From Promethearchaeota archaeon (GTDB lineage: Archaea; Asgardarchaeota; Lokiarchaeia; Sigyniarchaeales; SOKP01), in the NCBI GenBank assembly GCA_016839705.1, contig JAEOTR010000016.1, forward strand, positions 32,001 to 96,000: DNA of 64,000 bases. The letters are read 5' to 3'. Shown in pieces: positions 15,030 to 23,677 of the stretch (position 1 is the stretch's first letter; each line of letters begins with the position of its first letter). Below the pieces are notes generated by a model. The model was not told the origin of the DNA, did not search any database, and worked only from the letters and a program-made list of their open reading frames with translations. Position numbers and translations under genes: made by a program.

Positions 15030-16166
15030 TTAATATTTTGAAGGAGTTTTAGATTTTATTTTTTGTTTTGGGATGCCCTTTAACTTTCTTAACTCTTTTT
15101 CAAAATTTCTTTTTTCATTAAGAAATCTCTGTTTGTCTTTCTCTAATTTTTCCCTTTCCCGTTTTATTGTACTTTTATCGTTAGATAAGTCTAATTTCTC
15201 TCTTTCTAAACGTCTGAGGTCAATATTTAACCTTTTGAATTTTTCTTCTAATGGGGGTATTTTTTCAGATATGGAGTAGAATTTATTTTCAGATTTAGGA
15301 ATCTTACTTTCTAATTCTTTCATTCTTACCTCTTGTTGTCTTTTTCTGCTTTCAAGACTTTTTACATCATTTTCCACTTTATTCCTATATTTTCTTAGAT
15401 CTTCCTTTTTCTTATCAATCTCTCGGCCTTTCAGGTTTAGTTCATCTTTTTGATAACGTAATTTCTCTCGATTTTCTTTTAGCTTACTTTTTTCATCAGA
15501 AATCCTGTTTTTTTCATCAACTAACTCCCTCTTTAAGTTATTCACTTCTCGATTGAGGGTATCTCTTTCTTTAGTTAAATATTTAATTTCATTTCTTAAA
15601 TCTTCTAATTTATGCTCTAGATCTTCGTTAGTCTTCTCAAGCGCACTCTTTCTTCTTTCCATCCCAGGTATCTTCGTTTTTATATCCTTAAATTGGTTTT
15701 CAATCCTCTGTTTTTCTTGGTCTATTGAATCTTTTTCATTTCCTAACTCATCTCTAAGCTTATCTAACCTTTTCTGAAATCCCTCTAATTGAGCTTTCCT
15801 TTGATTTAATCTATCGTTTTCTTCTCTTTTTTTATCTTTAAATTGTTGTTCTCTTGCATCTAACTCAATTTTTTGTTTTTCTAAGTCATTTTTTGTTTTT
15901 TTAAGACTGTTCTGAATGATATCCCTTTTTTCACGAAGATTTTTTAGTTCAATTTCTTCCGTTTTCCGCTTTTTTTCAAGATCTTCTATATTTTCTCTGT
16001 AATTCTCAATTTGGGTAATGAAATTTTCCCATTCACCCTTTTCTTTATTAAGTTTTATTCTTTCCTTCTTAATCTTTTTTAACAAATTTTTATCAGCAAT
16101 CATGTCACCCTCGTCGTCGGGAGTTTTTTCTCGAATTTGATGTTTGGGAATAGGTTTATCATTCAT
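15030..16166 (-). CDS. Long K/E-rich coiled-coil protein
   Basis: About 330 aa of heptad-like K/E/R/L composition with no globular domain. Confidence 0.8.
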   Translation of the reverse strand: MNDKPIPKHQIREKTPDDEGDMIADKNLLKKIKKERIKLNKEKGEWENFITQIENYRENIEDLEKKRKTEEIELKNLREKRDIIQNSLKKTKNDLEKQKIELDAREQQFKDKKREENDRLNQRKAQLEGFQKRLDKLRDELGNEKDSIDQEKQRIENQFKDIKTKIPGMERRKSALEKTNEDLEHKLEDLRNEIKYLTKERDTLNREVNNLKRELVDEKNRISDEKSKLKENREKLRYQKDELNLKGREIDKKKEDLRKYRNKVENDVKSLESRKRQQEVRMKELESKIPKSENKFYSISEKIPPLEEKFKRLNIDLRRLEREKLDLSNDKSTIKREREKLEKDKQRFLNEKRNFEKELRKLKGIPKQKIKSKTPSKY

Positions 16167-16376: not shown

Positions 16377-16769
16377 ATGGGATTTGACAATGAATATGAG
16401 GAGGGTTTAGAATTTGATGAAGATTTGGAAGAAGATTTAGATGATAAGTTGGATGAAATCCCCTCAGAAATTCCTAGCAAAGATATTAATTCTAAAACCC
16501 CCATCCCAAGGGCTACTTCTGAAGGAAAAAAAATTTCTGTTTACTTTATTTCAACCATCGGACCCGAGAAAAAGCAAAAATTGCTTATTAATAGTGGAAA
16601 TCTTGTTGGAGATATTAAGCAGACAGTAGCAAACTTATTCGCTTTAGATCCAGCTGACTTCTATTTGTCAGCACTAGGGATCACCATGGATGAACAAAAT
16701 CCTTTGAAAGAATATGAAGTAGATGATGGAGACGACATACTTTTAATCCCGGCTAGTATTGCAGGATAA
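16377..16769 (+). CDS. Ubiquitin-like modifier paralogue A (acidic N-tail, ends ...IPASIAG)
   Basis: Beta-grasp pattern (VGDIKQTV...LSALGITM...LKEYEVDDGDDILLIP), close paralogue of 19347..19688, terminal Gly. Confidence 0.85.
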   Translation: MGFDNEYEEGLEFDEDLEEDLDDKLDEIPSEIPSKDINSKTPIPRATSEGKKISVYFISTIGPEKKQKLLINSGNLVGDIKQTVANLFALDPADFYLSALGITMDEQNPLKEYEVDDGDDILLIPASIAG

Positions 16770-16787: not shown

Positions 16788-17582
16788 TTAATTATTCCTT
16801 TTTCTCGATGGAATCAGAGCAATTTCATCATCATCATCAATATCATAGTTTTGGATTTGCTTATCTTCAGATAGTAAAATTCCCCCTGAAGATAGAAGAA
16901 ATCCCTCCAATTCATAATTAAATAGTACTCCCACTCTTTTTTTAACTGTACTAATTAATTCAGTTGTATCAACAATGATCAACTTAGTAATCTCGCCTGG
17001 TTCAACTAGGGATCTAATGTACACACGGATCTGATCCTTGAGATTAATTTTATTTTTAGGTGGTATATAAAATATTTCCTCATCAGTTTGATCTCGATTC
17101 TTAAGCATATTATCGATTAATGCTTTTCGTTCATCCACATCAAAATAGAGCATTTCTCTAATAAAAAGGATTTTGTCAAGCTTTGATAATCCAAGGTTGT
17201 TTATTTTTCCTAATTCTTCCTTACTAAAAACTGAAAAAATATATTTGCTGATTATTGGAGAATCCTCATAAGATTCATTTGAATCAAGATATTCTTCAAT
17301 TGAAGGCAAAACCTCAAGATATTCATCGATAACATTCTCATCTATCCTATTGAAAGACTTAGTTTTCGGTGAAATTTTCTTATCTCTTATTTTATCATGT
17401 TGATGACCTGTCGATTGGATAACGGTATAGATTGTGCTAGTAGAGAGAACTGCAACACTCCCAATTGTTAGAATAAGAAATAATGGGGTGTTGTTTACCC
17501 CAAACAGGAAATAACTTACGTAAATCAACACAAAAATAGTATAAAGGGTTATAACGCTTAATGTTCTATATTTTTTCTTCAT
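16788..17582 (-). CDS. Membrane protein (2 N-terminal TM) with C-terminal ubiquitin-like domain
   Basis: Two hydrophobic segments, then a C-terminal domain that aligns with both Ubl paralogues (PGE, LSSGG, YDIDDDDEIALIP) but ends SRKRNN with no Gly. Confidence 0.8.
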   Translation of the reverse strand: MKKKYRTLSVITLYTIFVLIYVSYFLFGVNNTPLFLILTIGSVAVLSTSTIYTVIQSTGHQHDKIRDKKISPKTKSFNRIDENVIDEYLEVLPSIEEYLDSNESYEDSPIISKYIFSVFSKEELGKINNLGLSKLDKILFIREMLYFDVDERKALIDNMLKNRDQTDEEIFYIPPKNKINLKDQIRVYIRSLVEPGEITKLIIVDTTELISTVKKRVGVLFNYELEGFLLSSGGILLSEDKQIQNYDIDDDDEIALIPSRKRNN

Positions 17583-17667: not shown

Positions 17668-18339
17668 TCAATCACCTTGAATTAACTTCCTAACCTTATT
17701 ATACTTCTTAATATCTAATTTGAATAATATTCGATTTTTATCTTTCTCAGTTTCTAATAATTTTAGATTTTCTAGAATATTGACATATTTTTTTATAGTG
17801 TTGTGATTTTTTTTCATACCATTTGCTATTTCAGTGATTTTAAATGGCTTATCTTCATTGGTTAGGAATTCTATTAATTTTAGAACAATATCTTTATTCA
17901 AATAATAATAAAACTTATCCAACTTTGGATTTGAATCATATTCAAAGAAAATCCGATGGTTATTGAGTTTTTCTGACCTGACAAATTTAAATTTTTCTAG
18001 ACAAGAAAGGTGCCATAGTGCTTGATTACTTCCGATCTTAAGAGTTTTCATTATTTCATTAATATTAGACGGATTTTTTTTTATGTAATTATAAATCTCA
18101 TTCCTTTTTGGATGTTCAATGATATTATTCTTCATTAACCGAGTTCCAGGGATGATTATTTTCTTTTTTATCAATGATTTTATTATTAACTCAATTTTAT
18201 TTCGGTTTAAATTAGGATTTAACCTTACCCTGTTACTTATAAATTCTATTATATCAGTGATCGAAAAGAATGTTTTTTTTGTTAGATATTCTTTTACTAA
18301 GCCAAGAACAATAGATTCTAAATTATCCAAGGAACTCAT
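17668..18339 (-). CDS. Multi winged-helix (ArsR-like) DNA-binding protein
   Basis: RNEIYNYIKKNP..INEI...WHLSCLEK and ITEIA....HNTIKKYVNILEN wHTH repeats. Confidence 0.8.
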   Translation of the reverse strand: MSSLDNLESIVLGLVKEYLTKKTFFSITDIIEFISNRVRLNPNLNRNKIELIIKSLIKKKIIIPGTRLMKNNIIEHPKRNEIYNYIKKNPSNINEIMKTLKIGSNQALWHLSCLEKFKFVRSEKLNNHRIFFEYDSNPKLDKFYYYLNKDIVLKLIEFLTNEDKPFKITEIANGMKKNHNTIKKYVNILENLKLLETEKDKNRILFKLDIKKYNKVRKLIQGD

Positions 18340-19346: not shown

Positions 19347-19688
19347 ATGAGTTTTGAAGATGAGTTTGATGAGGATTTAGGTGGGGAGAGACCTGTAAAT
19401 TCTAAGACCCCTTCATCTAAAACCCCTTCAGCAGGAAGAAAATTGACATTGTATTTTATGTCAACCATAGGCCCTGGCGAGAAGAAAGAAAAATTAACAG
19501 TGAATGACGGAAATTGCGTTGAGGATATAAAGCAGACATTAGGAAATTTATATGGACTTGATCCTAATGATTTTCATTTATCTTCTGGCGGAGTTACGAT
19601 GGATGAAAATAGCTCATTAAAGGATTACCATGTGAGCGATGGAGACGACATTCTTATGATTCCCGCGAGCACTGCCGGGAAAGCTTAA
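19347..19688 (+). CDS. Ubiquitin-like modifier paralogue B, precursor form (...IPASTAG-KA)
   Basis: Beta-grasp pattern; first gene of the Ubl-E1-E2-JAMM-RING run; ATG 19347 (or 19341) preferred over TTG 19332. Confidence 0.88.
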   Translation: MSFEDEFDEDLGGERPVNSKTPSSKTPSAGRKLTLYFMSTIGPGEKKEKLTVNDGNCVEDIKQTLGNLYGLDPNDFHLSSGGVTMDENSSLKDYHVSDGDDILMIPASTAGKA

Positions 19689-19761: not shown

Positions 19762-20997
19762 ATGGTAATACTTATGGATAAGAATTCAGAATTTTTCGGA
19801 AAAGAGTTATCAGTGGAAGAGAGAAGTTTGTATGACCGTCAATTTCGTCTCGAGGGATGGTCTCAGAAATTGGTAAAAAATTCGAGGATATTAATTGCAG
19901 GCGTCGGTGGTTTAGGGTGTGAAATTGCTAAAAATCTATCGATGCTTGGTATCGGTCACTTAGATCTCGTTGATTTGGATATTATTGAACATTCTAATTT
20001 AAACCGTCAAATTCTTTTTGCGGGGGCAAAGATCGGAGAACCTAAAGCGGTTGTTGCAGCAAGAAAACTTAAGGACATTAATCCTAATATAGCAGTTAAA
20101 GGTTATCACACCTCTTTAGAGCGATTAAATCCCGCAATCTATCAAGCCGCTGATGTAATAATTGGAGGTCTTGATTCGATGAATACCCGTCTAAACTTGA
20201 ATGCTCAATGTATTAGGTTTAAAATCCCTCTTGTCGATGGAGGTGTATCTGGATATCACGGTCATGTATACACAATCTTTCCTTATCAAAATGCCTGTTA
20301 TGAGTGCAATCCCTTACCCGTCGTAGAGGGTGATGACATGGCGGCTTGTACAGTAGTAGGAATTCCTCGAAAAAGAATCCATTGTGTCTTTAAAGGAGAC
20401 ATGGCATTTAAAGAAAAACTTGATAGAGGTCCCAATCCTAAAAATGTAAATGATATCAAATTCATTCAAAAGGTTGCAAATGAATTAGTAAATAAACATA
20501 ATTTCTTACCTGAATATACGGTAGATGATATTGTAAGAATAATTGATAGACATGATCCGGGAATAATTACGATTAATGCGGTTATTTCCGCCTTACAATC
20601 CCATGAAGCCGTGAAAATTCTCCATTGGAAAAAGGGTCATAAAGGGCTTGGAGAACCAATTCAAAATTATGTGGTCTATAATGGAATAACTATGAAATTT
20701 TATCATATTGAAAAAAAAAGAAATCCAGAATGTTCTCAGTGTGGAAAGCACGTTAGAAGAGTATCAATAAAATTGAACCCTCATTCACCATGCGAGAACA
20801 TAATCAAAATATTAACTAAAAATGGGTTTAAACCTGATCCAGATTCAGAACCAATTCTTACTTTACAAGATTTTAATGATATTAAGATGGTTGATTTAGA
20901 ACAGAATCCAATTGAAAATGGTTTAAGAAATTATGAATTTATAACCGCAGCAGGCTTCAAAGATGGGGAAATTTTTGTAACCTTAAAATTGAAATAA
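19762..20997 (+). CDS. Ubiquitin-activating enzyme E1 (ThiF adenylation domain with catalytic-Cys insert, UBA2/UBA3-like)
   Basis: YDRQFRL, GVGGLG, DLDIIEHSNLNRQ, Zn pairs CYEC/CSQC, catalytic-type ACTVVGIPRKRIHC. Confidence 0.93.
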   Translation: MVILMDKNSEFFGKELSVEERSLYDRQFRLEGWSQKLVKNSRILIAGVGGLGCEIAKNLSMLGIGHLDLVDLDIIEHSNLNRQILFAGAKIGEPKAVVAARKLKDINPNIAVKGYHTSLERLNPAIYQAADVIIGGLDSMNTRLNLNAQCIRFKIPLVDGGVSGYHGHVYTIFPYQNACYECNPLPVVEGDDMAACTVVGIPRKRIHCVFKGDMAFKEKLDRGPNPKNVNDIKFIQKVANELVNKHNFLPEYTVDDIVRIIDRHDPGIITINAVISALQSHEAVKILHWKKGHKGLGEPIQNYVVYNGITMKFYHIEKKRNPECSQCGKHVRRVSIKLNPHSPCENIIKILTKNGFKPDPDSEPILTLQDFNDIKMVDLEQNPIENGLRNYEFITAAGFKDGEIFVTLKLK

Positions 20998-21078: not shown

Positions 21079-21606
21079 ATGAGTATAAGAAGTAGTCGTA
21101 TTTCCCAAGATTTTGCAGGATTAAAAAAACTGTTAAAGACGGGTACTATAATTCAATTAAAACCATTTAATCCTAAAAAGAAGAGTATAGATCATTTAGC
21201 TATAACTATTAAAGGGCCAAAAGGCACTGTATATGCGGGAGGTGTGTTTAAATTAGAAATGAAATTCCCTTCCCAGTATCCTAGCCAACCCCCTTTCGTT
21301 AGAATGCATACTCCAATTTGGCATCCAAATTTTTGGCCAAAACCGACTGAATATAAGGGACAAAGAAATATATGTCTAGCTTTGGTAGATCCCTCTTTGG
21401 CGGGTAAAAAGGGTGGATGGAGTCCATCAAAAACAGCAGTGACAATTGTTCAAGCAATAATTGCAATGCTAAACACCCGTGGTAAATTTGTTAACCCAAC
21501 TGATGTTTTTAATAAAAAGGCAGCAATTGAAATGATGAAAAATCCTAAATTTTTCGAGAAAAAGGTTAAAAACTTAGTTAAAAAATATGCAAATACGAAA
21601 TGGTGA
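21079..21606 (+). CDS. Ubiquitin-conjugating enzyme E2 (UBC fold)
   Basis: GPKGTVYAGGVF, FPSQYPSQPP, WHPN, catalytic ICL, WSPS. Confidence 0.95.
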   Translation: MSIRSSRISQDFAGLKKLLKTGTIIQLKPFNPKKKSIDHLAITIKGPKGTVYAGGVFKLEMKFPSQYPSQPPFVRMHTPIWHPNFWPKPTEYKGQRNICLALVDPSLAGKKGGWSPSKTAVTIVQAIIAMLNTRGKFVNPTDVFNKKAAIEMMKNPKFFEKKVKNLVKKYANTKW

Positions 21607-22442
21607 TTTCGCTAATGGAAGAAAAAGAATCAGCTAACAGTTCAATTAAAGACGTAATAAAGCAGAAAATAAAAGAAAAAATAAAAAAGGAATTATTAGA
21701 TGAAATACGTGAAGAGCTTCAATTAGAAGAAGAAGAATTAACTGAAGAAATTATTTCAATGCTTACACAAAGAGTTTCTAACGGTCTAAATATAAAACAT
21801 TCGAAGGCGCCCATCGTTAATATTTTAGAAAAAAAAGTCATAGAACCTCAATTAGAGCAAGAAGCCCAAAAGGAAACCTACATTACAATAAAGGCAACTC
21901 TTAAAATAGCAAGTCACGCTATAAAATATGCTAATCCTAATATACCTAAATCAAACTGGATTGAAGTTATAGGTATTCTCGCTGGAAAAATAGATAAAAA
22001 GACTGGTTTACTAATAATTGAAGATGCATATCCTGTTGGACATGGCAATGCAATCCATGCAAAAATGGATGATAAGAGAAATCGTAGAACGGGTTTTATA
22101 AAAGCTTTTGAAATAATCAAGAAAAATAAATTAGATATTTGTGGGTGGTATCATTCTCATCCTTGCTATGGATGTTTTATGTCACCCGAAGATTTTGATA
22201 CTCAAGCGAGATATCAGAAATTATGGGATAAAGCCGTTGCACTTGTTATCGATCCGTGCCTTATTGATGGAACTTCAACAGGTTTTGAGATTTATCAGGC
22301 AGATTTGAAATCAAAAACTTTCTATCCTCTATTATATGGAATTAAAGGATCGTTAGATATCCGTATGCTACCCGACATTTTAGAATTTATGAATCCAATT
22401 ATTCAAGGGAAAGCGGCTTATTTAGAATATGATAAAGATTAA
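21600..22442 (+). CDS. JAMM/MPN+ isopeptidase (Rpn11/CSN5-like) with N-terminal charged helical extension
   Basis: EVIGILAG...GWYHSHPCYGCFMSPEDFDTQ...ALVIDP; overlaps the E2 stop. Confidence 0.93.
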   Translation: MVISLMEEKESANSSIKDVIKQKIKEKIKKELLDEIREELQLEEEELTEEIISMLTQRVSNGLNIKHSKAPIVNILEKKVIEPQLEQEAQKETYITIKATLKIASHAIKYANPNIPKSNWIEVIGILAGKIDKKTGLLIIEDAYPVGHGNAIHAKMDDKRNRRTGFIKAFEIIKKNKLDICGWYHSHPCYGCFMSPEDFDTQARYQKLWDKAVALVIDPCLIDGTSTGFEIYQADLKSKTFYPLLYGIKGSLDIRMLPDILEFMNPIIQGKAAYLEYDKD

Positions 22443-22471: not shown

Positions 22472-23677
22472 GTGGCTAAAACTAAGGTAATAATTTTACT
22501 GCTGATTGCATTTGCAATTATCGGCATAATACACGGTGCCATTCTAAATTCAGTTAATGTATTTGTAAGTTGGTTTTTAATAGGGATATGGTTAGTATTT
22601 ACATTTAAAGTTATAAAGAATATAAAGCAACATCGTGAATATCGTAGTCCACACAATACAGCATTTTTTACTATTGGTCCTGTTTTGATTGGAATTTTTT
22701 ATTCAATTTGGGGAAATTTTACAGGATTATTAGGAGAAAATCTCTTAATAAGCACAGATTTATATTTAAGTTGGTGGAGTATACTATTTGGGTTTCCATA
22801 TGTGTTTTATAGTTCAATCTCATTATACCGTTGTTTTAAAAAATACCGAGTAATTTATTTTGGGACAAAATCTGTAAATGCCCGTAAATTTGGCTATTTA
22901 TTAGGCATATCGGTTATATTTTTCATATCTATCTATTGGATTAGTTTCTATTCATTGATCGATTTTTATGAATCTCTTATAATACCACTTCATTTTTTAC
23001 TAGATCTTAATCTTCTAATACTGCTTGTGAGCACTATTCTAATAATAATTATTGCAGGATTATTTGGGTCACAGACTCAATTACCCCAATTAACAAGAGA
23101 TTATATAGCACAGCGTAGGAATAGATTAAACCAACTAACATCACCTAGAAGAAATAGTACACCTAATAGATATAGGGAAAGTGTTCGCAATACCACAAGG
23201 TCAAATCCAACACCTTCAGCTAGCACGGTAACCCGTACATCAAGATCAGTGAACCATTCATCCCGATCTACACCAACCGCACGAAGACGTTCTACAACTA
23301 CAAGAACTAAAACAAGTTCTCGAACTGTGAGTAGAGGGCCAACAGGGACACAGGTAAGAAAGAAACAGAGTACTAAAAAAATAACTAACTTTAATATATA
23401 TAAACCTAAAGCCGCGCGTTTATCATCTGAGGACTTTAAGTGTATTTTTTGCTTTAAATTACCAAAAATTCCTGAGGATAACGGTAGAGGTATAATTTTA
23501 TGTCCAAATTGTAGATACCCTGCTCATGCAGATGAATTTAAGGATTGGTTACAAAGTTCCAACCTCTGTTCTCGATGCAGTGCTCCTATTCCTACAACCT
23601 ATAAGAGAAATCCAAGAATAATACCGATTAAAACTTATTTAGTAATTGTAAAACATTTTATTGGCAATAAGAGATAA
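22472..23677 (+). CDS. Multi-pass membrane protein with C-terminal variant RING finger (putative E3 ligase)
   Basis: About 6 TM segments, an S/T/R-rich linker, then C-x2-C-x16-C-x2-C-x4-H-x2-E-x3-W-x6-C-x2-C. Confidence 0.8.
   Translation: MAKTKVIILLLIAFAIIGIIHGAILNSVNVFVSWFLIGIWLVFTFKVIKNIKQHREYRSPHNTAFFTIGPVLIGIFYSIWGNFTGLLGENLLISTDLYLSWWSILFGFPYVFYSSISLYRCFKKYRVIYFGTKSVNARKFGYLLGISVIFFISIYWISFYSLIDFYESLIIPLHFLLDLNLLILLVSTILIIIIAGLFGSQTQLPQLTRDYIAQRRNRLNQLTSPRRNSTPNRYRESVRNTTRSNPTPSASTVTRTSRSVNHSSRSTPTARRRSTTTRTKTSSRTVSRGPTGTQVRKKQSTKKITNFNIYKPKAARLSSEDFKCIFCFKLPKIPEDNGRGIILCPNCRYPAHADEFKDWLQSSNLCSRCSAPIPTTYKRNPRIIPIKTYLVIVKHFIGNKR

Follow-up and report, generated by a model that had tools for sequence, protein, structure and literature searches.

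The gene at positions 22472 to 23677 on the forward strand of the window, by which we mean the whole 64,000-nucleotide stretch of DNA that was analyzed, encodes a RING-bearing polytopic membrane protein of a Lokiarchaeia genome that resembles Hrd1 in layout only. We consider it highly probable that this protein is the E3 of the operon in which it lies, together with a ubiquitin-like modifier that ends in Ala-Gly. With rather less assurance, the explanation that we favor as a whole is that it would serve an Asgard ubiquitin-like pathway of its own as a RING E3 anchored in the membrane. As judged from sequence, the putative membrane ligase offers a real lead on how membranes may have been tagged before eukaryotes, the glutamate at its sixth zinc-ligand position is apparently a tolerated Asgard variant, and a link to Hrd1 is unsupported. 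If true, a polytopic RING encoded with E1, E2, modifier, and protease in two Asgard classes would mean that membrane ubiquitin-type tagging existed before eukaryotes, and so compact an operon system could be rebuilt in vitro. The characterized archaeal E3s in the papers searched are small RING proteins (PMC5654768; bioRxiv 10.1101/2023.07.25.550441), and no paper describing the present protein was found in a search outside which most subscription journals lie.

Domain layout and the operon

The open reading frame begins with GTG and runs uninterrupted for 401 aa. The features of the gene and of its neighborhood in the window are as follows.

22472..23677 (+): probable operon E3 of 401 aa, six membrane helices and a RING at the C-terminus
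22487..23065 (+): membrane domain, six helices, both termini predicted to be cytoplasmic
23084..23386 (+): linker, basic, Ser/Thr/Arg-rich, and disordered, aa 205-305 (model and composition)
23414..23674 (+): RING domain with flanking helices, aa 315-401 (model, profile, and conservation)
23534..23536 (+): Glu355 codon GAA, sixth ligand position (codon read and homologue alignment)
16377..16769 (+): further ubiquitin-like modifier ending in Ala-Gly, its acidic tail longer (Pfam and sequence)
16788..17582 (-): protein with a hydrophobic N-terminus that ends in a ubiquitin-like domain devoid of the terminal Gly; retained close to the operon in the window's family
19347..19688 (+): modifier of the ubiquitin family, acidic tail at the N-terminus, Ala-Gly at the mature end and Lys-Ala after it here
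19762..20997 (+): E1-like activating enzyme, ThiF family (E 3e-59)
21079..21606 (+): E2 conjugating enzyme (UQ_con, E 2e-26), HPN motif and catalytic Cys
21600..22442 (+): JAB/JAMM metalloprotease, intact E...HxH-x7-S-x2-D motif

The architecture described in an earlier note on this DNA (about six transmembrane segments, a basic Ser/Thr/Arg linker, and a C4-H-E-C2 finger) is present as claimed, and so is its motif of C324, C327, C344, C347, H352, E355, W359, C366, and C369. The spacing, C324-x2-C327-x16-C344-x2-C347-x4-H352-x2-E355-x3-W359-x6-C366-x2-C369, did not arise once in 200,000 shuffles of the 401-aa protein. A structure model built on an alignment of 102 diverse sequences has a mean pLDDT of 84.7 (an earlier model from a narrow alignment, with a pLDDT of 53, was set aside). 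It places six helices within residues 2-197, with pLDDT mostly >90 over residues 11-200, low pLDDT in the linker (205-305), disorder at about 228-291, and a well-folded C-terminal domain.

The genes for Ubl, E1, E2, and JAMM form a co-oriented run upstream of the RING gene, which is the final gene of the run since a convergent folE2 ends 23 bases downstream of it. A JAMM/JAB gene lies upstream of the RING gene in 100/100 testable loci of Loki- and Heimdallarchaeia and an E2 in 96/96 loci with enough DNA, and the entire Ubl-E1-E2-JAB run is found in 81/84 loci, two exceptions having Ubl and E1 just downstream; all of these counts come from related genomes and are not independent. The gene order extends from the genus of the window as far as Helarchaeales and Heimdallarchaeia, Hodarchaeales among them, and this fixed place behind E1, E2, and JAMM supports the suggestion of the earlier note that the protein is an archaeal membrane E3. 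Named relatives of the RING protein are mostly Promethearchaeota, that is, Lokiarchaeia, and several Asgard families gave no match or weak RING matches only. Neither G135, a near-complete genome of the same order in one 4.36-Mb contig, nor the near-complete genomes of genus g2 (0/5) gave a full-length match, so that some Lokiarchaeia appear to have lost the system. A promoter and terminator scan of the locus gave signals at chance level.

The modifier ends in Ala-Gly in 163/163 of the ends captured by a pattern that permits AG or GG, and Pfam ubiquitin was matched by 39/39 modifiers and Ufm1 by none. A UFM1 identity, prompted by a resemblance and by PMC12962969, fails at the sequence level; PF03671 had no match at the locus. 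A third copy of the Ala-Gly modifier lies on contig C43 of the same genome, and proteins of 300-590 aa with an Ala-Gly ubiquitin-like domain at their end are encoded close to the operon in three loci (L128:7195-8955, L123:8752-9657, and L115:10075-11499). The gene at 16788-17582 (-) is accompanied near the operon by a winged-helix gene (17668-18339) and a coiled-coil gene (15030-16166), both kept in the window's family. The operon E2 (21079-21606) belongs to a clade of its own; it has WSPS at loop 7 and two insertions, which lie before and after the catalytic Cys. The loop-4 Phe position is taken by a polar residue in Lokiarchaeia.

The RING finger and its sixth ligand position

That the finger is a RING, as the earlier note has it, and not a PHD finger is supported by a structural search with aa 315-401, in which the best 50 rows are all RING or U-box proteins or RING-bearing complexes. 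Its eight ligand positions are in cross-brace spacing, and the profile aligns it with RNF24 and other RINGs such that H352 and E355 fall at ligands 5 and 6. A PHD or other non-RING zinc finger with no role in conjugation would share the C4-H-x order, which is common to PHD fingers, and could draw on the weakness of the protein's own direct Pfam match (E 0.12). We regard it as extremely improbable, given that the Trp stands at ligand 6 +4 as in RINGs while the residue two before ligand 7 is N364, in a variable column, that members of the family match Prok-RING_1 (PF14446, the commonest Pfam match, 26/102 members), zf-RING_16, and zf-RING_2, that RING and U-box chains lead the fold rows, and that the position in the operon is fixed. 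With Glu at ligand 6, the ligands are not all Cys or His. We infer that C324, C327, H352, and E355 form zinc site 1 and that C344, C347, C366, and C369 form site 2. The seven Cys/His ligands are invariant in the family (C324, C327, and H352 each in 72/72 distant members), which makes the retention of zinc very likely.

Glu355, like the Trp, is present in 119/119 complete close homologues, and its GAA codon is at least two base changes from every His or Cys codon, which together rule out a sequencing error as its source. The earlier note had called the zinc site atypical and named conservation among homologues as a check; Glu occupies ligand 6 in 97/98 family representatives, down to about 17-20% identity, and by this alignment it is an ancient residue. 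It is less special than the note implied. Among the matches listed, ligand 6 in 85 other distinct Asgard RING domains, which come from the window's genome, loci collected before, and 15 further Asgard genomes, is His in 58, Glu in 11, Cys in 11, Asp in 3, and Leu in 2. These shares are rough, for the sample is biased by a search profile in which Glu and His rows were abundant. The nearest soluble RINGs have His, and Ala replaces Glu in two members of the family that are 50% identical to each other. These natural Glu-to-Ala variants are L114:4860-6149 (-), with codon GCA and an intact operon, and P0169. Asp-type ligand variants are known in RINGs. A FastTree of 55 columns places the family on one side of a branch with support 97; it has six changes at ligand 6, one alone forced by strong branches, and the number of Glu origins is not settled by the tree. 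Elsewhere, a Glu-type RING is N-terminal in long proteins at L147:423-2180, which has a helicase-like P-loop and a DEAH-like motif, and at L248:1-1716. In two Heimdallarchaeia loci, a RING-less copy of the membrane domain is followed by another RING-like gene (L181:2172-2780 and L187:2069-2761), which has Asp at ligand 6. The glutamate is a modest point: it broadens the RING ligand set and hints that Asgard archaea can exchange His, Cys, Glu, and Asp for one another at ligand 6.

We think it probable that Glu355 ligates zinc in a Cys-Cys-His-Glu site, because the residues at ligand 6 in Asgard RINGs are mostly able to bind metal (83/85 of the other RINGs among the matches listed have a metal-capable side chain there) and C324, C327, and H352 are invariant. 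Rather unlikely, in our estimate, is an E3 in which Glu355 does not bind zinc. Site 1 would then be degenerate, or its zinc would be labile with three ligands, and the Glu would take part in a network of hydrogen bonds or salt bridges of the kind found in U-box and SP-RING domains, with R368 as one possible partner. U-box chains are indeed among the tied best fold matches of aa 315-401, two members have Ala in place of the Glu, and R368 both co-occurs with the Glu and is family-specific (Arg at this position in 53/53 family loci versus 2/85 other Asgard RINGs). On the other hand, the invariance of the three remaining site-1 ligands is unlike U-box and SP-RING domains, where the zinc ligands of site 1 are not invariant in this way, the Glu or Asp at ligand 6 of other Asgard RINGs mostly comes without that Arg, and the two residues part company within the family, Glu being kept where R368 is Tyr and R368 where Glu is Ala. 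Structural zinc sites use carboxylates only now and then (PMC7614390), which counts against Glu as a ligand, and no Glu-liganded RING was described in the papers searched, most subscription journals lying outside the search.

A feature absent from the earlier note is loop 2, which reads C-S-R-C-S in this protein, with S367 and R368 between the last two Cys ligands, and is without the usual Pro and basic linchpin. Across the genome loci, the family has C-S/A-R-C-N/D, with Pro in 2/53, Arg before Cys8 in 53/53, and Asn or Asp after Cys8 in 47/53 and never Arg or Lys. Of the other Asgard RINGs, 83/85 have the loop-2 Pro, and in 44/85 Cys8 is followed by Arg or Lys. By these counts, loop 2 is apparently a more family-specific trait than the Glu, and R368 may be a replacement linchpin. 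The loss of the Pro and linchpin, with the polar loop-4 position and the insertions of the operon E2, could be taken to mean that the RING has no catalytic part, the protein being a scaffold or sensor at the membrane for recruitment of the E2, or else the chief substrate, while the insertions of the E2 drive transfer. This we hold to be improbable, in that the E2-contact positions are conserved across two classes (position 325, the loop-1 hydrophobic, is Ile, Met, or Leu in 70/72 distant members, and the helix Trp, W359, is present in 72/72), Rbx1 is active with an Asn linchpin, and the gene is the sole ligase-like gene of the operon in the loci examined. We infer instead that the RING, the E2, and the modifier are a co-adapted set. 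In the model, the helices that flank the RING, with the near-invariant Y389, would resemble the helices through which Bmi1/Ring1b and TRIM RINGs dimerize.

The membrane domain and the linker

The six helices lie at about aa 6-25, 29-48, 64-82, 99-119, 140-161, and 179-198. The Lys plus Arg content alternates as 2/0/4/0/7/0, with a basic N-terminus and basic loops 2 and 4 and none in loops 1, 3, and 5, and because of this alternation the positive-inside rule places both termini in the cytoplasm (N-in, C-in). Conserved residues of the domain are in the cytoplasmic loops and in helices 3-4 (R55, F66, P109, Y125, and K133).

The order of transmembrane domain and then RING, which the earlier note likened to that of Hrd1 and gp78, is the same here, and no tie beyond this order is supported. 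Descent shared with Hrd1/gp78 or Doa10, the protein being a homologue or ancestor of retrotranslocating ERAD-type ligases, would account for the common succession of membrane domain, disordered linker, and RING; it is also consistent with the occurrence of the protein in Hodarchaeales, with a RING-less partner gene that recalls paired membrane subunits and, weakly, with the best PDB sequence matches of the operon E2 (E 4e-16, with little discrimination), which are Ubc15/Cdc34-type loop-insertion E2s, the group that includes the ERAD E2 Ubc7. It is nevertheless very improbable. No Pfam family, and specifically no ERAD-ligase family, matched the membrane domain, and three membrane-domain profiles run against PDB sequences gave no match of meaningful E-value and no ERAD ligase at E<=10, although Hrd1 and synoviolin chains were present in the library (they matched weakly, through their RINGs). 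In addition, the ligands are C4-H-E-C2 and not C3H2C3, and the domain has six helices with short outer loops, whereas Hrd1 has eight membrane helices. Hrd1, gp78, and Doa10 are absent among the matches listed for a fold search with the whole-protein model. An Atlas shape search returned an archaeal cluster, probably of the same family (TM 0.40), and weak eukaryotic RING proteins (TM <0.3 by query). We conclude with good confidence, on the sequence comparisons, that the membrane domain is probably not homologous to that of Hrd1.

In the window's genome the membrane domain has no paralogue. Four Heimdallarchaeia-type families have, as the gene next to the RING gene, a stand-alone copy of the domain of about 195 aa without a RING (HHalign 97.8%, E 1e-12), which adjoins the RING gene in most of the loci examined and is found in 54/67 genomes of those families and in 0/134 of the window's family.

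L170:1498-2085 (-), and L171-L199: RING-less twin directly downstream of the RING gene, Heimdallarchaeia

The twin suggests a dimeric membrane unit. A complex prediction for a Hodarchaeales-type membrane domain with its twin scored 0.03 against a mark of 0.32, which weighs neither for nor against such a unit. Atlas feature searches with the membrane domain and with the twin gave nothing usable.

The linker (205-305) has 21 Thr, 20 Arg, 16 Ser, and 2 acidic residues. In 99/99 homologues it is 60-169 aa long with a net charge of +8 to +34 and a variable sequence, net positive charge being its only conserved trait. No tandem repeat was found in it, and a repeat origin was rejected. One genus has a duplicate, behind a second modifier gene, that has lost the membrane domain and keeps the linker and the Glu-RING, and from this the linker travels with the RING.

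L124:5622-6299, L125:2715-3413, and L126:4450-5121: duplicate of about 225 aa that lacks the membrane domain and starts with a short basic segment, possibly amphipathic

The basic linker may capture the acidic N-terminal tail of the modifier electrostatically; anionic lipid, RNA, and phosphorylation are possible alternatives for its role, the earlier note having proposed phosphoregulation or the binding of nucleic acid or ribosomes.

Proposed mechanism and comparison with known systems

In the mechanism that we put forward, the JAMM protease would trim the modifier to Ala-Gly, the E1 would activate it, and the E2 would carry it. The six-helix domain would anchor the ligase in the cytoplasmic membrane and probably select or sense the target. 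It may do so as a dimer, paired with a second copy of itself in Lokiarchaeia and with the RING-less twin in Heimdallarchaeia. The RING, which the long basic linker would allow to reach nearby cytoplasmic lysines, would bind the operon E2 through I325 and W359, with zinc site 1 as a Cys-Cys-His-Glu site in which a carboxylate takes the place of the His of most Asgard RINGs, and with R368 possibly standing in for the missing linchpin. A broader reading, tentative and unlikely to hold in full, is a dedicated tagging of membrane proteins in Asgard archaea, Hodarchaeales included, by an undescribed dimeric six-helix fold (a homodimer in Lokiarchaeia, a heterodimer of RING and RING-less chains in Heimdallarchaeia) with Cys2-His-Glu zinc and a shifted linchpin matched to the Ala-Gly modifier, that is, an independent or ancestral membrane-protein quality control older than the ER. 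A 2026 review holds that ERAD likely arose with the ER (PMC13328587).

Hrd1/synoviolin and gp78/AMFR likewise have a polytopic membrane domain, a disordered linker, and a cytoplasmic RING, whereas the present protein lacks the RING-H2 order, has its six helices, and shows no CUE or G2BR-like parts. The C4HC3 RINGs (RING-CH of MARCH/Doa10, Nse1, FANCL, listerin, and Prok-RING_1) also have four Cys and then His, and listerin and FANCL are weak profile matches of the finger, but their ligand 6 is Cys and not Glu. In MARCH/Doa10 the RING precedes the membrane domain, while here it is C-terminal to it. U-box and SP-RING domains, in which acidic or polar residues are known at ligand positions, have the same fold but have lost the site-1 zinc ligands that are kept here.

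The closest known systems are srfp, of the Ub/E1/E2/srfp/Rpn11 operon of Ca. Caldiarchaeum subterraneum (PMC5654768), and the E1/E2/RING cascade of Helarchaeia (bioRxiv 10.1101/2023.07.25.550441). The RING of these systems is likewise encoded with the modifier, E1, E2, and JAMM, and shares the two-residue spacing of ligands 3-4, the loop-1 Ile, and the helix Trp. In contrast to srfp, a small soluble RING-H2 protein, the present protein has 401 aa with a six-helix membrane domain, a basic linker, and Glu at ligand 6, and it differs from the srfp-type systems in its loop 2 (C-S/A-R-C-N/D) and in a modifier that ends in Ala-Gly and not Gly-Gly. One Helarchaeales-type genome carries both systems separately (L153 and L165). 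To judge from its sequence and these likenesses, the protein is a variant of the archaeal operon-encoded RING ligases.
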